Shown here piece by piece: positions 810 to 48,605 of a DNA stretch of 64,000 nt. The DNA comes from Felis catus. Taxonomy: Eukaryota. The stretch's first letter is position 1; each line of letters opens with the position of its first letter. A model generated the notes under the pieces. The model was not told where the DNA came from, ran no database searches, and saw nothing but the letters and a program-made list of their open reading frames with translations. Where the stretch lies: NCBI RefSeq assembly GCF_018350175.1, contig NC_058368.1, forward strand, positions 111,292,001 through 111,356,000, in the 5' to 3' direction. A program made the position numbers and the translations under genes.

Positions 810-1550
810 CCCCAAAGCGTCGCTCCTCGAGTTACGTATTTCCGTAATCTATTAGCGAGGTCGCAGAAGGTCATTGGAAACAAGTGCCTGCCGCAGCAAC
901 CTCCATTTTGCTTTTGGGCACAAGCCTAAGCTACGTATGGGCCTCATCTGTATTCCTTTACCGCTCGTTAGTTTGGGGGTTCGCTTTTCTTCATGTCCTC
1001 GTGAAGAGCAGAGAACCCTGTCGACGGAGGAGAGGAACATTGGTAGTTAAAACAGGCAGGAGGAACCAGGGCGGCCCACTCTGCCCTCATTCAAAATGGT
1101 GGCGCGAGACTCGCGCTTTGTCCGGTCGGGCGGCGCGCATGCTTAGCCAGCCTCTCCGGCTTGGCGTTCTGGAGGGGCGGGCCTACGGCGGGGGAGGCGG
1201 GGGGCTCGCGCCCTGCGGCCTGGCCTGAAGTCATCTGCGCTGCCTCTGCTACCTGCAGCACCACCTTCATCCTTCCCTACCTATGGAGGGGAAGATGGAG
1301 CCTGTGACCGTAGCGACAGATAGCGGGGACCGGCCGGGGGCTCCAGCGGGCTCAGGCCTGTCGGCTTCCCAGCGTCGGGCCGAGCTGCGGCGGAGGAAGC
1401 TGCTTATGAACTCGGAACAGCGCATCAACCGGATCATGGGCTTTCACAGGCCCGGGAGTGGCGCAGGTGAGAACCTCCCATCTCCCTTCAGCTCCCGCCC
1501 ACCTCTTTGAGTCTTGAGGATCGTTCTTGCTTTCTCTCCAACGCCCCGCT
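810..1550 (+). promoter_or_regulatory. CpG-island promoter of CAMLG
   Basis: CpG/GC-rich stretch spanning exon 1; GC boxes (ggggcggg ~1174), NRF1-like gcgcgcatgc ~1133, YY1-like caaaatgg ~1092; no TATA box evident. Confidence 0.8.
1295..1466 (+). CDS. CAMLG: CAMLG (calcium-modulating cyclophilin ligand, GET2 counterpart) coding exon 1
   Basis: [57 protein letters not shown] matches the CAML N-terminus; strong Kozak aagATGG; donor CAG|gtgaga; 172 nt, phase 1; in-frame ATG also at 1283. Confidence 0.96.
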
Positions 1551-3151
1551 GATCTTTTTGACAAAGCTCTGCTCTCTGACCTCCCCTCTGTCCCTGCTTT
1601 TTAGGTGATGTCTCAAGTTCTCACTTCTTAATCTCTGGACGTTTCTAGTACCTGTCTTCAGTTTTCCGTAGGTTTCGCTCTCAGATTTTCCCTGTTCCCG
1701 CCCCAGGTTGTGAAACCTTGGCTCCTGAGCCCAATGGCATGGTGCCCTCTGCCCAGTTATGCTAGACAGCCCCTTGTTCCCCTTCTTTCCCCACGCCCTC
1801 CCCTCTTTTGAAGGGCGCACATTTTCCGCCCCGGTTACATTGCTCTCTTGTGCCCTTCAGGAAGAATACTTGGCTTTCTTTCCGTTCCAGATGCTTTCCC
1901 TTCTAGTGCCTTCCCTAGTATCTATCTTCCTTCTTTTGCTTTTCGCTGTTACTCTGTCGGCACAGGGGAGCTTGTGCTTACTGAACTGCCCCCCTAGTCC
2001 TTCCTACGTGGATCTAGGACCCTTACGGTCTTATCGTAGTGTCTGTGTTCAGTGCCCTCAACACTGTCATCTGCAGGCTTTCAACAACAGGAGAATAAAT
2101 TTGGAGCGACCATTCTTTGTACCCTAACAAGTGGGCCGTGCCCACCAGAGGTCTTCTCTTTTAGTGTGCTGAGATTGATGTCAGGAACTGCATTTAACCC
2201 TAAAGAGAGTTCCTCATTTCTCCCCCAATGCATGTACAATGAGTTCCTAAAAAATTTTTTTCATGTGATTATTTATGGAACACTTAATATGAGCTAGTGC
2301 TCTCTAAGTTTCCATTCAGTGCCTGTAGTAATTGACGCTTAGTCACTGTTCGCAAGCTACTTAAATCTTTGTGATTTCTGCGGGGCTTTAGATGGACAGC
2401 TCTGAACTTTTAGATAGTTCACAGGTTTGCAGCCAGAACTACTAGGAAAGGTAAGAAGCGCTTTTTCAAATTCATCTAGAACAGCAGCTAGAAAACACAT
2501 TTCTCCCTTTAATAATTAAAAGCAGGGTATTTATTCTTTCCCAAGACATGTATTTGTTATCCTTCTCGAGGTACATTCTGTATTTTGTTCTTTTGCTTTG
2601 AACATTCTGTCACTAAAGGCTTTATTTTGTATTTAAACCCGAAAAGCATCCTAAAACTGCTTAAGTACCTACTAATGGCTCCAGCACTACAGTGGGAGGA
2701 TTACGTAAACAGTAGCTGTAGGATATGCCACACCCTATGCTGACAGGACTCTGGATTCAGAATTGTAATATTAAAATACAGGTTTTAAAGAGCTTTAATC
2801 ATTTTATATTTTTAACCAGATAGGCTAGAGCAGGCAGTGCAGTCATACTTCTGGGATATATTATCCATGAAAACCTGGTCTTTTTGGCTTGCTCCATCCA
2901 TGACCATCTTTCCCAATTTGTCTACTAGTCTTCTACTCCCCAAATTTGGATTATGTCCTTTGCAGGAAAACTCTTCTGGAGTGATGTATTTTGAGCGTGT
3001 AGAGGAAGGAACTAGTTTATTTTTTCGTGCGGAACCAGTATTTAGATTCAGAGACTGCAGAGTTCTACCAGTAGCAGCATATTTTTTAATCTTAACGTGA
3101 AAAGTGTTTGCCAGTATACACTACATAAGGCTTCTAAATTTCTCTTCTCAG

Positions 3152-3609
3152 AAGAAGAAGGTCAAACAAAATCAAAGCAGGACAGTGACAAACTGAACTC
3201 TCTCACCATCCCTTCAGTTTCAAAGCGAGTAGTGCTGGGCGATTCGGTTGGTACAGGAACTACTGACCAGCAAAGTGATGTGGCCGAGGTAAAGGGGACT
3301 CAGCTGGGAGACAGATTGGACTCTTTCATTAAACCACCTGAGTGCAGTAATGATGTAAACCTTGAGCTCCGGCAGCGGAACAGAGGGGACCTGACAGCAG
3401 ACACTGTCCAGAGGGGTTCTCGCCATGGCCTCGAACAGTATCTCTCCAGATTTGAAGAAGCAATGAAGCTACGGAAACAGCTGATTAGTGAGAAACCCAA
3501 TCAAGAAGATGGAAATACAGCAGAAGAATTTGACTCTTTTCGAATATTTAGATTGGTGGGATGTGCTCTTCTTGCCTTTGGAGTCAGAGCTTTTGTTTGC
3601 AAGTACTTG
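3152..3609 (+). CDS. CAMLG: CAMLG coding exon 2
   Basis: Acceptor ttctcag|; [18 protein letters not shown]...[24 protein letters not shown]; donor TTG|gtaaga; 458 nt. Confidence 0.96.
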
Positions 3610-3784
3610 GTAAGAAACATAATGGAAAATGCAAATTGGTTATGTGATGAGGACTATTAATCTGTGGGACTGATTGCCAATATTACTGTTTACCAGATTC
3701 ATGTGGCTGTTTGGGGATATAGTATAAACTGCTGTTCACCTAGATATAGATGAAATGTCCTGGTTAAATACAGAGCCCAGTAAT

Positions 3785-3995
3785 AATTGCTTAACTCTTT
3801 CTGTATTCTAGGCAGCATTCTAAGTGCTTTACATGTATTAATTCATTTAACCTCATCCTCCTGAACTAGGTATCATTGGACTCTGTGTTTTATAGATGAA
3901 GGAATGAAGCCTCAGGGGTTAAGTCATTTGCCCAAGGTCACATCGCTAAGTGACAGCTGGGCAGTTGCTTTCCAAAGCCAAAGGGTAAAGTATCT
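3785..3995. mobile_element. MIR SINE relic
   Basis: ttttatagatgaaggaatgaagcctcaggggttaagtcatttgcccaaggtcaca resembles the MIR core. Confidence 0.7.
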
Positions 3996-5010
3996 ACGTG
4001 TACTATAGATTAATTACCACTTTTCAAATAATTTGAAACCTTAAAATGCAGTTGCTGTGGTCCTGAACAGGAGCTTTAATTTAATATAATCCTGAACCAC
4101 ATAATTTTCCTGTCGTTCAGAAAGCACCTCAGCATTTTATAATGTGGTAGTATCATCATAATGGCAGTTCGTCTTTATTTTACCAGAACGTGCCGGGAGA
4201 ATTGAAGAAAGCCATAGCTCATAGTTTAGTGTCTTGCTCTTCGAAGTATTTCCATTCACTAGACATTTAAAGAATATCTACCAGGTACCAGGTACATAAG
4301 CAAATTTTTCAGATTATGAAAGTTTAGGTTACTCGGCAAAAACCTTTCTTAAAATCAGTTTTATGCATTTTTTCTTAAGTGAGAATCTGTTGTACAGACT
4401 TTTTTCTGATGTTAAATTGTCCTAGCTTTCAGCATTTAGTGAGATGTGTAGCTGCTTTCTCTTATTGAGAGGGCTCTGTGTTTTTATGATTTGAAAGTTA
4501 GGTCCTATTTTTATGCCTCATTTTTGTGTGAGGTTTTTTTGGTTTTCTGGGGTTTTTTTGCTATGAGATTTTCAGCTGCTCTTTCTAAGTACTTCCATCT
4601 GGTGATGTTTGTTTGCTTGTTCACTCCATAATATTTTTACGTTTAGGAATAAATGTAAATTAATTATTGTTTTGATCTTTCTGATTATATTGTGTGAGAA
4701 GCAAGAAAACCATGCCATTTTATCTATAACAAGAAAAGCTTGTCATTTGGATGTCAGACATAGAGTTAATAAGTCAACTTCTTGCCCCAGAGTCTGGGAA
4801 TGCATGTTATCTTTTGAGTACTGGGCCTTTATGTGTGCTTCGAAATTGTCAGTTAGTTACTTCTCGGTGAGAGAGATGTTACTGCATAATGTGTTACACA
4901 TCTATCACCATTGAATACTCTAAATCATTTAAAGAGTAAATTTTTGTGAGAGAAGACATTTTGGGGGACATCAAAATAATGTGACTTGAGAAGCATGTTT
5001 TTTAATAAGG

Positions 5011-5060
5011 ACTTAATTATAAGCTTAATTATAAACTTATTTATAAACTTAATTATAAGT
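5011..5060. repeat. 12-bp AT-rich tandem repeat x4
   Basis: cttaattataag cttaattataaa cttatttataaa cttaattataag. Confidence 0.85.
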
Positions 5061-5278
5061 TTTATAATAAGGAAATCTAGTCCCTTTAGTTTTTTCACCC
5101 TTCTGCAGAAACAAGACTGCTCTCAGCCACTAAAATTAAGTTGTTGTTGTTGTTTTTTTTTTTTTTTTTTTTGCCATGTTTTTGCTTGGAATTTTACAGC
5201 TGCTGTTAGTTTAGTTTGATTTGTTGTGATTTGAATGATAATGTTGGAAATACATAACTTTATCTTCTGTCTTCACAG

Positions 5279-5344
5279 TCCATATTTGCTCCGTTTCTTA
5301 CTTTACAACTTGCATACATGGGACTATACAAATACTTTCCTAAG
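5279..5344 (+). CDS. CAMLG: CAMLG coding exon 3
   Basis: Acceptor cttcacag|; [22 protein letters not shown] (transmembrane segment); donor AAG|gtaaat; 66 nt. Confidence 0.95.
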
Positions 5345-6024
5345 GTAAATTAAAATTTTTTCTAAATTGGGGTGATGTGTTTAGACCGATTAATGATTAG
5401 ATAATTCTAAGAGCTTAAAAAAAATTAGTCATACTCATGGTCTGAATCAGTGTTACTAAGAGTGTCATTGTCCCACCAATGCTGATCTTAAAACTTTCTT
5501 TTCTATTTATAATGAGTTAAGTTCAGGAGGGAGTGATTAGAAACTTGTTAGCAATTTGAAATTGCCATAACATTTTTATCATATTTTACAAATATGTCGA
5601 TCTACCATAGACTGGTGGAAAAACTTAACTACAGAATTTGAATAGTACTTGTCTGAGAAAGTATTGAGTTTAATTACTTAGTGAATGTAGTGATGCATTG
5701 TCTGTAATAAAGGAAATTAATTTTAAGAGGGGGCCATTTATCTTACTGTGCTCCTTTCTAGATGCTTAACTGCAGTGCTGTTTATCTTAATGTCAAGGGC
5801 CTGGTATTTTCAAGAAATATTTGGCCAAAACTGCATTACAGAATCATGTAGAGTGTTCATGTTTACCTAGTTGGCTTACTTACAAATGTATACACAGTTT
5901 TATGGGACTTGAGTGGTGGAGAAAATAACCTCACTTATGTGATTGAGTTTTGTATGAGTTTTTTACTGAAAAACAGGTACTTGGTCATTTGCTTAGTTAT
6001 TTGTTATTATTATTTATTATTTGT

Positions 6025-9000
6025 GTTTATTTTTTGAGAGAGAGAGAGGGAGACAGAGCATGAGTGGGGGGGGGGGGGGGGGGGGGGAGAGAGACACACA
6101 CACAGAATCCAAAGCAGACTCCAGGCTCTGAGCTGTCAGTACAGAGCCTGACTTGGGGCTGGAACTCAACGAAATGCGAGATCATGCCCTGAGCAGAAGT
6201 TGGTAGCTTAACCAACTGAGCCACTTAGGCACCCCCTCATGTGTATTTTGAATGGGGTTTGAAACATTTGTATTTATGAAGAGTCAAATAGGCCATATGT
6301 ATAAAGTAAGAGAGAGAAGAAAGAAATGTAATTTTATTTTAAAATTTATTTAGTTTTTTTGATTATATAGATGTATATTTATTGACCTCTCCCCCCCAAG
6401 AAAAGTAATTAAAGTGTCTGTTTAGAAATTAATTCTTTAAACACTGATTATAGTTTTACAATAGCAAAGTTTGGAAACAACGAAGATGTCTACTAATAAA
6501 TGACCTATTAGGGGCGCCTGGCTGGCTCTGTCAATAGAGTATATGACTCTTAATCTCTGGGCCGAGAGTTTGAGCCTCATGTTGGGTGTGGTGTCTACTT
6601 AAAATAAAAATGTTCTTTAAAAAAAAAAATTTTGGGGCGCCTGGGTGGCGCAGTCGGTTAAGCGTCCGACTTCAGCCAGGTCATGATCTCGCGGTCCGTG
6701 AGTTCGAGCCCCCCGTCGGGCTCTGGGCTGATAGCTCAGAGCCTGGAGCTTGTTTCCAATTCTGTGTCTCCCTCTCTCTCTGCCCCTCCCCCGTTCATGT
6801 TCTGTCTCTCTCTGTCCCAAAAATAAATAAACGTTGAAAAAAAAAATTTTTTTTTTAATGTTTATTTCTGAGAGACAGAACATGAGTGGGGGAGGGGCAG
6901 AGAGAGAGGGAGGCACAGAATCCCAAGCAGGCTCCAGGCTCTGAGTTGTCAGCACAGAGCCCGATGCGGGGCTTGAACTCACAAACTGTGAGATCATGAC
7001 CTGAGCTGAAGTCGGTCGCTCAACCGACTGAACCACCCAAGCACCCCAAAAATGTTTTAAATATTAAAAAAAAATAAAATGACTCACTAAATTATGGCAT
7101 ATCCATTCAGAATGATGAAGCTCTGATGTATAGATAATAGTAAGCTCGCCAAGAAATACTAAGAAGAAAACAAAATGCAGCATAGGATCTATAGTATATT
7201 GCTTTTTTCGTAAAAAGGAGAATAATATATATTTGATTTTGCTTGTGTATATGTGAAGAAACTGGAAGTTTTGTGATTTTTTTTTTTTTTTTTTTTTAAG
7301 ATTTTAGTTTTAAGTAATCTCTATACCCAACACAGGGCTCAAACCTACAACCCTGATAACAAGATTCGCACAATCTGAGCCAGCCAGGAATCCCATAAAC
7401 TCTGGAAAAATATTACATGAAACTATTAACAGCAGTTATTTGTGATAGGAATGTGTGGGGGTTACTAGGTAAATGGGGGAGAGAAAAGGAAGGAAGATTA
7501 CTGTATACTTTGTACTTTTCTCTCAACAAAACATTTTTTTATGGATGTGTCTTTTTTTTTTTTTTAAGTGTATTTATTTTGAGAGAGAGAGAGAAAGAGA
7601 ATCCCAAGCAGCTCCAAGCTGTCAGTGCAGAGCCCGACTCCAGGCTCGATCTCATAAACCATGAGATCCTAAAATCAAGAGTTGGACACTTAACCAACTG
7701 AACCACCCAGGTGCCCCTGTAACTTTTCTTTTTAAGATAAAAAACAATTTTTTTAAGTAATCTCCACACCTACATGGGGTTGAACTTACCACCCTGAGAT
7801 CTAGAGTCACATGCATTAGCAGCTGAGCCAGCCAGGTACCCCTTTGTTTCATTTTCTTTTCTTTCCCTCCCTCCCTCCCTCCCTTCCTTCTTTCTTTCTT
7901 TCTTTCTTTCCTTTTTTTTTTTTTTTTTTTACATGTTTATCACTTATTTTTGAGAGAGAGAGAGTGCATGTGAACAGAAGTGAGTGGGGGAAGGGCAGAG
8001 AGAGAGGGAGACAGAAAATCCCAAGCAAGCTCCATGCTGCCAGCACAGAGCCTGTCACAGGGCCAAAGCCACGAACCATGAGATCATGATGTGAGCTAAA
8101 ACCAAGAGCTTAACCAACTGAGCCACCCAGGCACCTTTTTTTTTTTTTTAGAGATTTTATTTTTAAGTAACCTCTACACCCAGCATGGGGCTTGAATTTA
8201 CAACCCCGAGATCCAGAATAACATGCTCTACCGACTGAGCCAGCCAGGTGCCCCTTGTAGGAACACTTAAGAAAAAATTCTTTTTTTAATGTTTATTTTT
8301 GAGAGAGACAGAGACAGAATGTCAGTGGTTTGGGGCAGAGAGAGAGGGAGACACAGAATCTGAAGCAGGTTCCGGGCTCTGAGCTGTCAGCACAGGGCCC
8401 AATGCCAGGCTTGAACTCACAAGCTGTGAGATCGTGACCTGAGCCAAAGTCAGATGCTCAACCGACTGAGCCATCCAGGCACCCCTGGAACAGTTTTTAA
8501 ACAGAAATGTTTAAAGAATTGTACAGTGAGCGCCCATTTCTACTTATTACCTAAATTCTACAAGTAACATTTTGTTATATTATCATGATTTATGCAGTTT
8601 ATCCATTTTCAGTCCATCTTTTTTTTTTCCTTGATGAGTTTCAAAGTATGTTGTAGATGTTGACATCAGTATGCTTTACCCCTACATGTTCTGGTCAGGT
8701 GTCATTAACTACAATTCAGTGGTTGTTTATGGTTATTCTTGTTTTCATTAAGGTAAAATTTTCACACAGTAAAATGCTCAAATCTTTAGTGAGTTTTGTC
8801 AGCCTGTGAGTCCCAAACCCTTTAAAGGTTTAGAACATGACTGTTAAGAATTTCCACTGTGTCCCTTTTCAGTCAGCTTTCAGCCCCTTACACCCGGAGG
8901 GTCTGATTGTTTTTTTCCCACCATAGATTAGTTTTTGCCTATTTTAGTACTTCTTTCTTTCCTTTTTTTTTAAGATTTCATTTATTAAAAAAAATTTTTT

Positions 9001-9865
9001 TTGTTTATTTATTTTGAGAGAGAGAGTGCGCACAAGTGGGGAAGGGGCAGAGAGAAGAGAGACAGAGAATCCCAAGCAGGCTCTGCCTCATCAGTGCAGA
9101 GCCTTTTGTGAGGCTCCAGCTTATGAAGTAGGAGATCATGACCTGCACTGAGATCAAGAGTCGGATGCTTAACCGAATGCTTAACACGACCCAGGTGCCC
9201 CTAAGTATTTTATTTTTGAGTAATCTCTATACCCAGCGTGGGGCTCAAACTCAAAACCCCGAGATCAAGAGCCAGCCCGCTGCTCCTGTTTTAGTATTTC
9301 ATATATGTGGAATCATTCTTGTACATACTTTTTTGTGCAAGGCTTCTTTTATCCTGCATAATTTTGAGTTTCATCCATGTTTTTGAGTGTATCAGGCCAT
9401 CCACACCCCCTTTTTTTTTCTTAGTAATATTCCATTGTATGACTGTGTGCATTTGTTGATCTCATCTCCTCTTGATGGTCATCTTGTTTCCAATTTTTGG
9501 TTATTATGTCTAAAGCAGCTGACATTTTCTGTGAATCCTTTTGTAGACATAGGCTCTATTTTCTCTTGGGTAACCTTTGCTTTTTATATTTAAAAAGTTT
9601 TTTTAATCATGTGACTGGGTTTGTTGATAACCAAATTGATAAATAAAAATTCAGCCTTGGGTCGCCTGGGTGGCTCAGTTGGTTAAGCATCCGACTTCGG
9701 CTCATGTCATGATATCATGGTTTGTGAGTTGGAGCCCTGCATTGGCCTTTGTGCTGACAGTGCAGAGCCTGGAGTCTGCTTCGAATTCTATGTCTCCCTC
9801 TCTCTCTGCTCCTCCCCTGACCTCTCTCTCTCTCTCTCACTCTCTCTCTCAAAAATTAAGATAAA
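6025..9865. mobile_element. Cluster of CAN-SINEs (SINEC, tRNA-derived) in both orientations in CAMLG intron 3, interleaved with old L1 fragments
   Basis: Repeated ggggcgcctgggtggc...gttcgagccc...(ct)n...aaaataaa and reverse complements, e.g. 6025-6235(-), 6634-6846(+), 6847-7047(-), ~8280-8484(-), ~9659-9865(+). Confidence 0.92.
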
Positions 9866-10634
9866 AAAAAAAAAAGATAATAGTACTCTTTAAAAAAAAA
9901 ATTCAGCCTTGAATCTAAAAATTAGATGAGAAAATTTTATCAGGGGATACATTTTCCATGATATCCTACTGCATGCGTAACAAGTGTGAATTCCTTTGCA
10001 AGGCAGATAGGGCTCTACAGAATGTTGTGATGATTCTGTCACGAATAACTCTGTCCTTTAGTATGGCTGTCACTCTTCAGGCTTTTGTTGTCGTGAGACT
10101 TACCTTACAATGAGATTTCTCCTCTCATTTTTATCCAGCTAAATCTTGCTCATTCTTGAAGGCCTGTTTTCAATTTCCAATTCCACTTCCTTTTGAAATA
10201 AGATCTTCACTGTGCTTTCTTTATGCATATAACCGTGGACTAATTTCTATCTTCTTTGAGCCACTATGCTATACATTATCCATGCCATTCATTTAGCAGT
10301 TATTTATGTCCTGTGTGGTAATGTTTTTCCTGTTTTTGTCTTGTGCGGTTGTATATATCTTAAATTGTTATTTTTGCCTTGCCTCTAAGGCTTTTTTTTT
10401 CACTTTTGATAGCATGAATGGTGTCTTTCCCATTATTGCCTAGCGATAGGCATTATATGCTTTACACATTATATGCTTAGTAAATGTTGGTTGATATATT
10501 ACTGATTGATGTATTGAAACTTCAGTAATAGTTTTGAATCATTTCGGCAAAAATAGCAGCACTGATCATGTATGTATAGAGCTTAAGTAGTCTTCTGAAA
10601 GCTGTAAGATTTATTTAAGTCTTTCTGTGTACAG

Positions 10635-10826
10635 GGTGAAAAGAAGATAAAGACAACAGTACTAACAGCTGCACTTCTATTATCTGGAATTCCTGCTGAA
10701 GTGATAAATCGATCGATGGATACCTATAGTAAAATGGGAGAAGTTTTCACAGATCTCTGTGTCTACTTTTTCACTTTTATCTTTTGTCATGAACTCCTCA
10801 ATTACTGGGGCTCTGAAGTACCATGA
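10635..10826 (+). CDS. CAMLG: CAMLG coding exon 4 (last)
   Basis: Acceptor gtgtacag|; [66 protein letters not shown] at 10824-10826; spliced CDS 888 nt in frame. Confidence 0.96.
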
Positions 10827-11231
10827 AGCTTGGAGAACACAGAAGGAGAAGCTTATAAAAAAGCAACTTCTCATCTATATTGCAGTGTCTCTAAAAGAGG
10901 CAAATCAGTTTACACCTTTATGTCATTCTTTGACTTTATAGGGTTGTAAAATCATTTGATTAGGAATGGAATGGCAGGTTCCCTGATTTAAAAGTGTTGA
11001 GTTTGTATTAATACTGATGTGAAGAATATACTACCATGGTCACTAATTGACTTTTCTTGTTTGATTAGAATCCCTAGTCTGTACCTTTCCCTAACTTCTA
11101 AGATTTGTAATTCCTCTTTTGGGAGCCGAGCTACTGCTTTTAGGAGAGCAGAGGCACACGGTCTCAGCCAGCCCCAAAGGCTGCGACTTGTATTTGTGTT
11201 GTTCTGTCCTGAGAAATGGAGCTGTCTTAAA

Positions 11232-36241: not shown

Positions 36242-38509
36242 GTAACTATAAAAGGAGCATTCAGTTTTTCCATTCTTTTTTTTCTTTCAGTGTTCCCATT
36301 CTTAAATTATTTAATGATCTAAAAGTGATTTGTTTTAGTGATTTGTATAATGATTGCTTTTAAAATCTTAGCCACTGGGGCACCTGGGTGGCTCAGTCGG
36401 TTAAGCATCCGACTTTGGCTCAGGTCATGATCTTGCAGTCCATGAGTTCGAGCCCTGCTTGGGCTCTGTGCTGACAGCTCAGAGCCTGGAGCCTGTTTAA
36501 GATTCTGTGTCTCCCTCTGTCTCTGACCCTCCCCCGTTCATGCTCTGTCTCTCTCTGTCTCAAAAATAAATAAACATTTAAAAAATTTTTTTAAATCTTA
36601 AAAAAGATGAGGTTTAAAAATAATAGTGAGGATGAATTATGTTAATCTTATATTTTAAGATTTTCAGTCATTTTTATACCTTGGCTTTCCTGATACTCCT
36701 CTTTGTCTTTCTCTGCTCAAGGAAGGCAGATATTTTTTCCATTTTATAGATAAAGAAATGGCGAGAAAGGTTAAGTAAGTTGATCAAAGTGTTTAGGCTA
36801 ATAAGACTTAATTTGTCCCAGAACCAGGTCATCTGATTTCCCAACTGGCTCTAATTCATGTGACATCTTTAAAAGGTGGTGATGACTGTTTTGCATTAAT
36901 ACCTGTCTCACTGGTATCTTTAAATGTTTTTGGCAAGAGTTATTTATTTATTAAAAAAAATTTTTTTTTAATGTTTATATATTTTTGAGAGAGAGAGAGA
37001 CATAGCATGAGCAGGGGAGGGACAGAGAGAGAGGGAGACACCGAATACAAAGCAGGCTCCAGGCTCTGAGCTGTCAGCACAGAGCCTGATGCAGTACTCA
37101 AACTCACAAACCTTGAGATTATGACTTGAGCAGAAGTTAGATGCTTCAACCGACTGAGCCACCCAGGCGCCCTGCAGCAAGAGTTATTTAAACATAATTT
37201 CATTTACTCTCTTTACTTTGACATTTTTCCAAATGTCTTCTTAAAAATGATGGTTATTAGATAATTTTGCTTTAACTAGAAGAAGGAAAAAAACCAGGTT
37301 GTGTGATCAAATAAGTTTTGGAAAGGTCATGTTGTACAATGTTAAAGTCGACTTTTTTTCTTAAAAGACTTCTTAGGCTTTGATAACGAATATGTCTTCT
37401 GATACTAGAAAAATGTAATAAATTAAGTGGCATTATCTCAATTTATTTAACCACATTCCTTTTTAAGGAATATTTGCTGTTGTTAAATGCTTTATGTTTT
37501 CTCAGCTTATCTTGGCCTCAGTTGTTCTGATGACAGTTTATTGTAAGAAATAACATTTACAAAAAATAACTTTACACATGCATGTATGTTATATTTATAT
37601 AGAAGTGAAATGAAAGTTTACTGATCTCTAACACATTCTGGTTTTTCCATTCTATTTCATTTTAAAAATACTGATTGTTGAGGCACCTGGGTAGCCCAGT
37701 CGGTTAAGTGTCTGACTCTTGGTTTCTGCTCAGGTCATGATCTCAGGGTTCATGGGTTTGAGCCCCACATCGTGCTCTGCTGACCGCACAGGGATTTCTC
37801 TCTCTGCCCCTCCCCCTGCCCACACTTTTTCTTTCTCAAAATAAATAAATCTTTAAAAAATAAAAAATAGGGGCACCTGGGTGACTCACTTGGTGAAGCA
37901 CCAGACTTCGGCTTAGGTCAAGATTTCTCAGTTCGTGAGTTCGAGCCCTGTATTGGTGAGCTCGAGCCCCCTTTGGGCTCCGCACTGTCAGCTTAGGGGG
38001 ATTCTGTCTCTCCCTCTCTCTTTCCCTTTCTCTCTGCTTCTCGTAGGATTCTCTCTCTCTCTCTCTCCCTCTTTGCCCCTCACTCACTCCCTCTCTCAAA
38101 AAACAAAAGAAACAACAAAAAAAATCAAATCAAGTTAAAAAAAAACATAACAAGTGAACAGGTAAATAAAATTAGAAAATGAGAATACTGGTTGTGGATA
38201 CTCATGATTCTCTAATGGAAACAATTCTCGACTTGAAAAACATTGGTGTATATAATTGCTTTAATTACTGCTTTCTAATGCTCCTTTCTTTTAAGGGATC
38301 ATGTGAAATTAAAATTGGTAAAATTCTCTGGTTTTCATTGAGTTCAAAGTTACAATACCATGTCGTCATGTTGCTGCTTCCTTTTCCTTTGTCGTGCTCC
38401 AGCATTCCAAAGAATTAAGCAGGAAGCTTTGGAGTCTTCTAATCAGACTTCACTGTGTTACCTTATGGAGCTGTATGGTGACCCTGGACATTATTTTCAA
38501 ATCTGTTTA

Positions 38510-38714
38510 TTTTTTTTCAACGTTTATTTTTGGGACAGGGAGAGACAGAGCACGAATGGGGGAGGGTCAGAGAGAGGGAGACACAGAATCAGAAGCAGGC
38601 TCCAGGCTCCGAGCCATCAGCCCAGAGCCTGACGCGGGGCTTGAACTCACAGACCGCGAGATCGTGACCTGGCTGAAGTCGGACGCTTAACCGACTGCGC
38701 CACCCAGGCGCCCC
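38510..38714 (-). mobile_element. Young antisense CAN-SINE with 13-bp TSD
   Basis: TSD tcaaatctgttta at 38497-38509 and 38715-38727. Confidence 0.94.
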
Positions 38715-38774
38715 TCAAATCTGTTTAAATAAGTATTAGTGATAAATAGACTAAAATTTCATCTTTTTTATTAG

Positions 38775-38853
38775 ATTGCTGAGCTGAAAAGAGGTGCTGA
38801 AATTATTGTTTGCACACCTGGTCGAATGATTGACATGTTAGCAGCTAACAGTG
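38775..38853 (+). CDS. DDX46: DDX46 exon 12 (TPGR motif)
   Basis: tattag|; [29 protein letters not shown]|gtaagt; 79 nt. Confidence 0.96.
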
Positions 38854-40269
38854 GTAAGTCAGGGATATTTTTTGTTGTTCTCATTTCTCGTTTTTGAATT
38901 CTATACATTTTTGTTAAATCAAAGCAGATAAAAGAAACCACCATTTTTTTTTATGTTTCTTCTTAAAGCTGTAATATCTTAAAATTTACATTGCAACCAG
39001 CTAACTGTTGCAAGCATTCATAATATTACTGCAATTTTACTTCCAATTTTATTTGGAAACTAACTCCATATGATGTTTTTGGTTCTTAACATGGATTCTT
39101 AATCAAATTTTGGTCTAGCTTTGCTTTTAATGGGGTTGGGGGGGCTATCTTTTTTTAATTTTTATTATTCTAAACTTCAGACTTTTTCCTCCACAGAAGC
39201 TAATGTTTTATTACAATACTGGATAAATTAAGGTATTGCAGCTTCAAGAAATTTTATCTTTTGTAAATATTGCATGTTTTTTAGCTCTTATGTTGTGCTT
39301 TGTTAAATTATTCCCTATCAAAACTGTTACTAAACTGTTGACATTATTTAACTTCTGTGGAGAAAGGCCCTTCGAGATTTATAGAACTGGGCTTCCGAGA
39401 CTTAAGCCATCCAAGGTAGGTAATTTAATGCTGTTCCCAACCTTGCAAGACTAATGGGGGCTGCAGATGTTAGTATGGAGTACTTAAATATTGGAGAGCA
39501 TTTACTTTGGCTCATTTCTTATTTTTTGAAGAAAATGCTTTCAAAGGTTTCCATTGCAGTGTTCAATATATACATAATAAAGTATTAAAAACTGTGAGTA
39601 ATGCATGTTTCTTGTAGCATTCGGCTTGAATTTCTGTATATACTTAATTCTAATTCTATATGATGTTGACGAAGTGACAACGAAATTGTTTGATAAATCA
39701 TTGTGCTTATACAGCCTACAAAAAGTTTTGGGTTGAATGCTGATGAAATAATCCCTTGTTTTTTCTCAATGCTGCATTGATTAAGTCTCCTGAAATTCAT
39801 CTTGATTAATTTTACCTTTTTCCCTTATCTGTCCTTTTGGTTTATATTTAATAACTATTTTATACATGTTTTTGCCAGGTGATTGATTCATCACTTGATA
39901 GAAAGGCTTGTGTTAATCCTTTAGAAAAACTTTCCTGTGTATGTTTTTAGTTTTCCACTGCCTAAGAAACCACTTGCATCTGTTTAAACCATTGGGAGCA
40001 TTTAATAACATTGAACTTATGATATCTTTGTGTAGAAAAATGTATGTATGCAATACATTTGGTATTTGAAGTTTTTGTTTAATAATTCAGTTACTTAATG
40101 ATGTTGAATAGCTTCTCATTAATATTTTGATATGCCCAGTAGAAGCTTCTAACTATATGAAAGTAGTTTATAAAGTAATATTAAAAGGAGGTTTTCTGCG
40201 TCTAAAATAGTTAGCACTGGAACTTGCTTTCCACACATACGCTGTAATCTCTAATATGTTTTTTTCTAG

Positions 40270-40386
40270 GTGATGCTGTCAGATAATGGCTGATGTGGCT
40301 CGATGCTTCATCTCAGTCTTAGTTTTATGATGTGTTTTGGAGAGGGCTGTTTTCTGAATTTTACAGGTCCTTCAGGCCCTATGATG
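40270..40386 (+). other. Candidate stop-containing (poison) cassette exon in DDX46 intron 12
   Basis: Acceptor gtttttttctag|, donor ATG|gtatgc; after exon 12 reads GDAVR* (TAA 40284-40286); internal alternative acceptor ttttacag| at 40366. Confidence 0.65.
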
Positions 40387-40591
40387 GTATGCAAGAGACG
40401 AGTTTGACAAAATAAAGGGCCTCATATACCCATTGTCAGAAAGTATTTGCCATTAGATTAAGATCTTGTAGACCAAAATTTCTGTTCACTCTTTAAAGAT
40501 ACCTAACTTACCCCTCTGGTTAAGTCAGGCATTTTAGTTCCCTTTACAGTTTTTTAAAGTTCTTGGTAGTCATAAAATGAATTGTGACTGA

Positions 40592-40747
<156 letters not shown>

Positions 40748-43700: not shown

Positions 43701-45170
43701 AACTTCAGCTCAGGTCGTGATCTCGCAGCTCATGAGTTCGAGCCCCACGTCAGGCTCTGTGCTGACAGCTCAGCCTGGAGCCTGCTTCAGATTCTGTGTC
43801 TCCCTCTCTCTCTGCCCCTCCCTCACTCATGCTCTGTCTCTCAAATAAATAAATAAGTAAACATTAAAAAAAATAGGTCACTAGATTGATGATTAGATAC
43901 TTCAGCACCTCTCAGTCCTGTGTTCAGGCCACTGGTGAAGGGTTTGGTGCATAAGCAGCTCCTATTGAATAATATGGATGCTACTTAAGGAGATAGAGGT
44001 ACTAAAAAAAGAGCATTTTTCAAAAACTTATTTTTAAGTCTAATGTAATCCTTTACATTAGAGGAAACAGAATCAGGGATATAATGACAGTTTTGACCTC
44101 TCCCCGCACCCCCAAGTTTTATTCCTATTTCACAATAATGCTCTAGTCCAGAGTTATTTTGTTTTTTATGTAGTGTTTATTTTTTAGAGAGAGAGTGAGC
44201 AGGGGAGGAACAGAGAGAGAGAGAGAGGGAGACACAGAATCTGAGCTGTCAGCACAGAGCCTGATGCAGGCTCCAACCCGCGCACTGTGAGATTATGACC
44301 TGAACTGAAGTCGGAGACTTACCTGACTGATCCACCCAGGCACCTGTAGTCCAGGGTAATTTTTACCAACATACATATCAACATCTCAAGGACCCTATTT
44401 GTGACTTAAAGATTGAGATAGTGATATTTACTTTGATAAGTAAATCAATCATTAAGTTGGTAGCAAATTATTTTCTTGAGGGTAAAGGAAAGCATTGCAC
44501 GTTGTCAAGAGAAGTATAAGAGAGAATGTACTAAACTTTTAGAACTTCTTCAAAAGGAGCGTATGCCAGTGATCAAGACTTGAAATCAGTGAAAAGTGGG
44601 GGAAATGGCTACCTTTGTAAACATTAGTGACCAGCTGGACTGATGAATTGAGTTTTAGCCTATAGGTATGAAAGGAGAAGTTTAAGGACTTAGTACTTGG
44701 CAGCCCATGGCTGACTTTAATTATCTGTGTACTGTGAGAGAGGGAACATACTGAAAAGTTTCAGGAACAGCTTTTAATCAGTAGCCCCCAGTGTGATAGC
44801 CAAGTGAGCATAAGAAGGCAATTGAAACCCAGGCCAGTCATCCCTGAAAACGTGTGTCATCATTAGCGTCATACTATGGGCATCTTCACGACTCTAAGCA
44901 GTAATAGGTATTCATAAGGAAAATCTAAGCTCCCATGTGTGATAGTTAGTACACCGTTCCATGAAGCACAGGATTTATAGCTTATTCATGAAGATTTCTC
45001 TTAGCACTTGGGCAAGAGAGGGAGTTAGTTGTGGTTTTCAAGAAAACTTTCCTCCTTTGATGCCTGTTTCGGATTCTGTGTCTCCCTCTCTCTGACCCTC
45101 CCCCTTTCATGCTCTGTCTCTCTCTCTCTATCAAAAATAAACATTAAAAAAAAATTAAAAAAAAATTTTT

Positions 45171-45719: not shown

Positions 45720-48605
45720 ATTTTTATGTTCTAAATTTACTTTTATTCAAGTATAATTAGCATACAGTGCTATTAGTTTCAGGTGTATGTTATTATCGGT
45801 TCTATATATTACTCAGTGCTCATCATGATAATTGTACTCTTAATCCCCTTCACCTGTTGCACTTATCCCCACTCACCTCCCCTCTGGTAACCACCATTTT
45901 GTTCTCTGTATTTAAGAGTATGCTTTTTTTTTCCTTTTGTCTGTTTTTATTCTTTATTCATTTTTTTAAGTTTATTTATTTTGAGAGAGGGGGGTAGAGA
46001 TAATACCAAACAGGCTCCATGCTGTTAGCACAGAGTCTAGTGTGGGGCTCAGTCGCATGAACCATGAGGTCATGACCTGAGCCAAGATCAAGAGTTGGAT
46101 TCTTAACTAATGGTGCCACCTAGGCACACCTGTTCATTTGCTTCTTAAATTCCATACATAAATGAGATCATATGGTATTTGTCTTTCTCTGACTGACTTA
46201 TTTCACTTAGCATTATACCCTCTGGGTTCATCCATGTTGTTGCAAATGGCAAGATTTCATTTAAATGACTCATTTTTAAAGATTGCCTTCTATCTGCGTA
46301 GGATTTATGTCCTCTGAGTTGATTTTCTATTTGCTTTGATTTCTGCATTCAGATTAGAAACATTCTGTAGAGGTCTGGGAACCTGTAGTTAACTACTTAC
46401 ATTTAAGGGACAGAGAAAAGGCAGCTTAAAATTCAGAGTTCTCTGTGCCAGAGCAGTACTTAGTGATCCTGAGTTTCACTGTTGTAATCTGGCTGGGACT
46501 TTAATTTAGATGAGGACTATCTTCTGCCTGACTTCTTGGACTGGGCAGACCGTCCCTGGAAAAATATTGGCCAGTCTCCAGCCTGGACTGTAAAGGCCTG
46601 TCTCTTGTTCTAGGTTGGGAAAGAGGCTTGAGGGAGAGTGGGAGCCTCAGTATTGAACATCATGCATTTACTTAATGCTTTTCTTCTTAGGATGTTATCC
46701 TTGCCTCATCCAGTCATGTTCTTATTTTATATTCTGCGTCAGCTAAACCTTTGGGTCTTTGGCTAGGGTGAGAGAAGGGCCTGACAGTAGGAGATAGGTG
46801 GAGGTTGAGGGATTTGATTGCTTCTTTAAAAAAATTTTTATTTTTGAGAGAGAGACAGAGAGAGAGAGCACGAGTGGGGGAGGAATAGAGAGAGAGGGAG
46901 ACACAGAATCTGAAGCAAGCTCCACACTCTGAGCTTCAGCACAGCCTGATGTGGGGCTCAAACCCACAAACTGTGAAAATGACCTGGGCTGAAGTTGGAC
47001 TCTAAACTGACTGAACCCCCTAGGTGCCCTGGGATTTGATTGCTTCTTAAGCAGACTTTGCATCAATTCTCTTCATTTTGGAATCCCACCTTTCATCTCC
47101 ATATAGGGAGAATAGCTTCATTCTCAACTTTTTCTTACTGCCAGCTTCCTTGAGCTTGATTAATCTTTTACCATCTTGAAACATTTTGTTGCTTTTTGTT
47201 TTGTTTTGTTGACAAATAAAATTTACATACTGTAAAACTCATGCTTTTTTAAAATTTATTTTTCTAATTTACATCCAAGTTAGTTAGCATATATTGCAAC
47301 AGTGATTTCAGGAGTAGATGCCTTAATGCCCCTTACCCATTTAGCCCATCCCTCCTCCCATAATCCCTCCAGTAATCCTGTTTGTTCTCCATATTTAATA
47401 GTCTGTTCTGTTTTTGTCCCTCTCCCTGTTTTTATATTATTTTTGTTTCCCTTCCCTTATGTTCATCTGTTTTGTATCTTAAAGTCCTCATATGAGTGAA
47501 GTCATATGATATTTGTCTTTCTCCAAATGGCTAATTTCGCTTAGCATAATACCCTCTAGTTCCACCCACGTAGTTGCAAATGACAAGATGCCATTCTTTT
47601 TGATTGCCGAGTAACACTCCATTGTATAGATATACCACACCTTCTTTATCCGTTCATCTGTCGTTGGACATTTGGGCTCTTTCCATACTTGGGCTATTGT
47701 TGATGGTGCTGCTATAAACATCGGAGTGCATGTGCCCCTTGGAAACAGCACACCTGTATCCCTTAGATAAATACCCAGTAGTGCAATTTGCTGGGTCGTA
47801 GGGTAGTTCTATTTTTAATTTTTTGAGGAACCTCCATACTGTTTTCCAGAATGGCTGCATCAGTTTGCATTCCTGCTAGCAGTGCAAAAGAGATCCTCTT
47901 TCTCCTCATCCTCACTACCATTTGTGTTTGCCTACCACATCTTTCTTAAAATTTATTTTGTAAAAACTCTTACTGTTTGTTTATTTTTGAGAGAGAAAGA
48001 GACAGAGAGTGAGTGGGGGGGAGGGCCAGAGAGAGGGAGACACAAAATTGGAAGCAGGCTCCAGGCTCTGAGCTGTCAGTACAGAGCCCAGCGTGGGGCT
48101 TGAACCCGTAAACTGCAAGATCATGACCTGATCTAAAGTCGGATGCATCACTGACTGAGCCACCCAGTCACTCCTCTACCACATTCTTTATCCATTCATC
48201 ATTTAATGGACATTTGGACTCTTTCCATAGTTTTGCTATTGTTGATAATGGTGCTGTAAAGGTCAGAGTGTATGTACCCCTTCAAATCTGTATATTTGTA
48301 TCCCTTAGGTAAATGCGGAGTGGTACAATTGTTGGATTATAGGGTAGTTCTATTTTTAACTTGTTGAGAAACCTCCATACTGTTCTCCAGAGTGGATGCA
48401 CCAGTTTGCATTCCCACCAACAGTGCGAGAGAGTTCCCCTGTCTCCACATCCTCGCCAACACTGTTGTTTCCTGAGTTAATTTTAGCCATTCTGACACCT
48501 GTGAGGTGGTATTTCATCATGGTTTTGATTTGTATTTCCCTGATGATGAGTGATATTTAACATATTTTCATGTATCTGTTAGTCTTCTGGATGTCTTCTT
48601 TGGAA
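45720..48605 (-). mobile_element. Antisense L1 3'-end fragments (~45720-46260, ~47245-47915, ~47920-48605) interrupted by SINEs
   Basis: ORF track NEILPFATTWMNPEGIMLSEISQ and TCTPMFIAAPSTIAQVWKEPKCP..FATTWVELEGIMLSEIS are the L1 ORF2p C-terminus. Confidence 0.88.

Follow-up and report, generated by a model that had tools for sequence, protein, structure and literature searches.

The window analysed here, 64,000 nucleotides of the Felis catus genome (NC_058368.1, positions 111,292,001 to 111,356,000 of the forward strand), contains 15 exons of DDX46. Alignment of a processed retrocopy of the gene to the window places these exons in order and assigns number 12 to the intron between the exon carrying the TPGR motif and that carrying the DEAD motif, in agreement with the initial annotation. 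Further upstream on the same strand, exon-like frames at about 1290-10940 mark a second gene, the peptides of which resemble CAMLG. SINE copies at 38510-38715 and at many other positions of the window are presumably of the carnivore type. The features in and around intron 12, numbered from the first nucleotide of the window, are as follows.

38775..38853, forward strand: DDX46 exon 12, 79 nt with the TPGR motif, constitutive, the 5′ flank of the cassette (placed by coordinates and by the retrocopy alignment)
40247..40269, forward strand: 3′ splice site A, with TGTAAT, CTAAT, a short U tract and CTAG, and a 53-nt AG-free zone
40270..40386, forward strand: poison cassette exon, 117 nt (placed by coordinates, the 117-nt human and mouse events and the GDAVR protein tails)
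40284..40286, forward strand: premature TAA after G-D-A-V-R, giving a 518-aa product if exons 1-12 are translated
40367..40386, forward strand: putative 20-nt short form from acceptor B, present in the sequence, chance-level in score and unsupported
40387..40392, forward strand: 5′ splice site of the poison exon, GTATGC
40411..40416, forward strand: AATAAA, 25 nt 3′ of the donor, a candidate intronic poly(A) signal
40635..40717, forward strand: DDX46 exon 13, 83 nt with the DEAD motif

The cassette is bounded by canonical AG and GT dinucleotides with plausible splice signals, and 1416 nt of intron lie upstream and 248 nt downstream. The GC content is 44% in the 117-nt exon compared to 32% in the intron. 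Two branch-like adenines precede acceptor A, one in CTAAT at -16, near the AG, the other in the weaker TGTAAT at -23. A genome search with positions 40150-40500 returned a single match, the window itself. Exon 13 of the window is identical to residues 516-542 of human DDX46. In the 117-nt form, translation runs AANS-GDAVR-stop, the in-frame stop falling five codons into the cassette. From the TAA to the 3′ junction of the exon there are 100 nt, which exceeds the 50-55 nt of the stop-to-junction criterion, and exons 13-15 follow in the window. The 20-nt form, which starts after a second AG, is frameshifted (19 protein letters, not shown) and ends at a TAA at 40659-40661, leaving 56 nt to the junction of exon 13. 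Exons 12 and 13, the AGs ending at 40269 and 40366, the ATG-GTATGC donor after 40386 and the stops of both reading frames were all recovered where the initial annotation had put them.

The processed retrocopy (L002, G000:C47:59345948-59349112) has exons 1-15 joined, with 95.5-99.2% identity to the exons of the window, and a 702-aa open frame surrounds the match, with DEAD changed to DLAD. The poison exon is absent from the retrocopy, so there is no fossil junction to be found there. Two Felis catus proteins, P0048 and P0009, have changes in common with the retrocopy (NLGRV and TNKK, respectively) and may be models of it. The tail of P0009, GRYDAL, was set aside together with its TNKK substitution.

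A rough splice-site matrix was trained on the 14 acceptors and 14 donors of DDX46 in the window and gauged against the gene's own introns. Real sites, when left out, scored from -3.4 to 14.0 as acceptors and from 1.7 to 9.5 as donors. The score of acceptor A, 9.4, is reached or exceeded by 16 of 2209 intronic AGs; for acceptor B, at 7.1, the number is 65 of 2209, and for the donor of the poison exon, at 6.8, it is 38 of 1828 GTs. In the 31.7 kb of DDX46 introns, four pseudo-exons (length 15-250 nt) equal or surpass form A in strength and 17 equal or surpass form B, the candidate being included in each count. From these ranks and counts A is a fair candidate and B unremarkable as far as sequence alone can tell; outside data raise form A, but not form B, above chance. 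Three further pseudo-exons, at 38047-38161, 44174-44355 and 46691-46767, equal or exceed the real poison exon on the same rough matrix. Intron 12 also holds a cryptic-exon candidate at 39181-39419, with an acceptor-like site at 39181 and donor-like sites after 39415 and 39419, both scoring above the poison-exon donor.

Conservation was assessed at the level of proteins and published tables and not by DNA alignment. A total of 263 proteins, 240 of them with the end of exon 12, came from the best 120 of 941 matches in one homologue search, the best 120 of 339 in a second, and two cluster look-ups, with 15 of the 27 members of the main cluster among those listed. Among these listed matches a GDAV(R/K/S) tail follows exon 12 in 14 of the 240 and a GGAVR tail in two. 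The carriers are primates, carnivores (lion, dog), ungulates (cattle, pig), whales, bats, squirrel, rabbit, Tasmanian devil and wombat, and the cassette is, at this level, conserved across mammals including two marsupials. The human entry D6RJA6_HUMAN (EAW62239.1) ends in AANSGDAVR. At 471 aa this isoform is some 48 residues shorter than the product of all exons, a difference consistent with loss of the 144-nt exon 3 by skipping, judging by its length and by P0111. The non-human entries are presumably for the most part projected gene models, and if so their tails are a sign of conserved DNA and not of expression. Fish tails (GEKAVR in two proteins, GALRR in one) and the bird tails GDAW and GDTW look like forced gene models and were excluded from the count. 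Projected models can carry invented tails, as GRYDAL, GEKAVR and GALRR illustrate.

Counterparts of the exon occur in human and mouse RNA tables, some of them from cells treated with cycloheximide, an agent that is not specific for nonsense-mediated decay (NMD). In the human list of PMC7347940, which admits events with three or more junction read pairs and a PSI of at least 3% in tissue RNA-seq, the rows for DDX46 hold one event, chr5:134790106-134790222 (hg38), of 117 nt and labelled EI_NMD; such labels are drawn in that list from GENCODE NMD or RefSeq NR transcripts. The same human exon is a row in the tables of PMC13078869 (chr5:134790105-134790222, flagged NMD_in), flanked by chr5:134788512-134788591 (79 nt) and chr5:134790469-134790552 (83 nt) with introns of 1514 and 247 nt. 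Cycloheximide compared to DMSO gives a delta-PSI of +0.059 (P 0.0058, FDR 0.069) and a gene log2FC of 1.21 in that row; the effect is small, with an FDR above 0.05, and the mouse brain event match is entered as #N/A.

The mouse table of PMC11188260 lists a 117-nt Ddx46 cassette at chr13:55808166-55808282 with the NMD class ‘Stimulating’. The row comes without flanking exons, hence its placement in intron 12 is deduced from gene and length. PSI under cycloheximide is 0.695 versus 0.274 at day 6 and 0.362 versus 0.228 at day 24, the flanks have a PhastCons score of 0.825, and the event is retained under the stricter cutoffs of the table. Skipping correlates with Ddx46 level (r 0.73, FDR 0.022), the gene trend is downward (tau -0.94), and the PTBP1 effect is given as n/a. 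The exon appears in PMC11188260 as a table row, with no mention in the main text available. DDX46 had no match in the supplements searched of PMC7726792 and PMC10123112, and the exon is absent from the passages seen of PMC3446320 (Ddx46 circadian expression), PMC8980049 (a gene list), PMC13059769 (V872 isoforms) and PMC9380745.

On this evidence we consider it highly likely that the 117-nt exon is the orthologue of the human NMD exon, that its inclusion leads to NMD and less DDX46, and that with one acceptor and one donor it serves as a rheostat set by the splicing state. Inclusion of 40270-40386 would introduce a stop ahead of the DEAD motif, with further junctions 3′ of it, and, by the standard exon-junction rule, a message with the 117-nt exon would be degraded by NMD, lowering DDX46 output. 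A single acceptor (40269) and a single donor (40386) would be enough for this. Evidence from human and mouse supports the decay step, which we infer for Felis catus, where splicing of the exon is likewise expected from the human and mouse junction reads. The early stop, together with the match to an exon catalogued in human and, probably, in mouse, makes it likely that the exon tunes DDX46 in this genome. What sets inclusion? The best-supported reading is that the cell's splicing-factor state, as in neuronal differentiation, would be the main influence, so constituting a rheostat on DDX46.

A different answer, compatible with the preferred one, is that DDX46 senses itself, with its level or ATPase activity setting inclusion through the awkward branch geometry of acceptor A. 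This is possible but less than likely. Autoregulation is frequent among the poison exons of RNA-binding and spliceosomal proteins, according to the portions available of PMC6547761, PMC11357089 and PMC12398788. In yeast a stronger interaction of Prp5 with Hsh155 favours suboptimal branch sites (PMC5238730, in part), which would amount to negative feedback; however, slower Prp5 ATPase also raises the use of such sites in the same source, and this has the opposite sign. The geometry of acceptor A, with its consensus CTAAT at -16 and weaker site at -23, appears to suit a sensor, but of the real DDX46 acceptors one carries its motif at -14 and several lack such a motif, making branch geometry a weak guide. 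Differentiating mouse neurons combine higher inclusion with lower Ddx46 mRNA, a pattern that the authors, writing on the class in the text available of PMC11188260, call surprising for feedback loops. These neuronal data fit programmed repression better than self-feedback by DDX46. Of 123 SF3B1-mutant events at 3′ splice sites, only 9.1% were reproduced by knockdown of DDX46, as given in the portion seen of PMC12434867. A more specific proposal, that DDX46 reads its own branch-site proofreading and that the close consensus and weak upstream motif would render inclusion dependent on its dose or ATPase, we regard as unlikely. If true, the poison exon would sense a catalytic fidelity step and not an RNA-binding motif, providing a natural reporter of Prp5-type proofreading in mammals.

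The initial annotation had proposed a dual-acceptor exon, in which the AG at 40366 would also be used at meaningful frequency to give the frameshifting 20-nt form. Acceptor B does fall within the top 3% of intronic AGs and has in common with form A a donor that is proven, and the 20-nt product would be hidden by NMD. Yet pairs as strong are present 17 times in the introns, the AG-free zone before acceptor B is only 20 nt and no yTnAy motif lies between -39 and -5. The GPSG continuation expected of the 20-nt form follows exon 12 in none of the 240 tails among the matches listed. The expected human start, 134790202/3 with no indel assumed, has no match in the eight supplement files searched of PMC13078869, and none of the five unannotated DDX46 junction rows seen in PMC8091538 is in intron 12. 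With a score at chance level and neither a protein tail nor a table row among those seen to support it, use of the second acceptor is improbable.

It is also very improbable that the acceptor doubles as that of a terminal exon using the AATAAA at 40411, or keeps intron 12 unspliced by acting as a decoy, with truncated protein or nuclear-detained RNA as the outcome in place of NMD. A hexamer 25 nt beyond the poison-exon donor is suggestive, but AATAAA occurs at a background of 0.94 per kb in DDX46 introns, and in the published rows seen the event is a cassette, has both its junctions and responds to cycloheximide (PMC13078869, PMC11188260). A literature search for this alternative matched 296 papers, and DDX46 is not mentioned in the 15 of them that were listed. 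That the 117-nt form is a chance pseudo-exon or splicing noise is scarcely credible and is refuted by the published human and mouse rows: three other pseudo-exons in DDX46 introns reach an equal matrix score, but the exon has the same length in three species, the same peptide tail in marsupials, flanks with a PhastCons of 0.825 and a PSI of up to 0.70.

The poison exon proposed by the initial annotation is accordingly supported: in human, and in mouse as judged by gene and length, it is annotated and NMD-responsive. The accompanying caveat, that it may already be annotated, is borne out by D6RJA6 and by the rows of PMC7347940, PMC13078869 and PMC11188260. Since the exon is both annotated and catalogued the finding is already known, and the reading from raw sequence correctly rediscovers a poison exon that is catalogued and little studied. 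A literature search, largely without subscription papers, found no paper devoted to the DDX46 exon or to DDX46 autoregulation. Recovery in this genome adds little beyond the fact that the exon can be read from raw sequence. The PSI of up to 0.70 in mouse neurons under translation block indicates that much of the DDX46 output may be under the control of the exon, which could also serve as a convenient test case for branch-site proofreading by human DDX46 in cells.

The closest known systems are the exons of the human and mouse genes. The human NMD exon and that described here are both 117 nt, lie between exons of 79 and 83 nt and give a GDAVR-stop tail, and the downstream introns are 247 nt in human and 248 nt in Felis catus; the upstream introns differ, being 1514 and 1416 nt, respectively. 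The mouse cassette is alike in gene, in length (117 nt), in its NMD-stimulating class and in its conserved flanks; its regulation was shown in differentiating neurons of the mouse. Among other splicing factors, SR proteins and SNRPB are known to feed back on their own poison exons. For SMNDC1/SPF30, too, abstracts report such feedback of the host protein, and the DDX46 cassette is likened to these cases on structure only. Like the poison exons of SR proteins, SMNDC1/SPF30 and SNRPB, it is a conserved cassette that carries a stop codon, lies in the gene of a splicing factor and is coupled to NMD.
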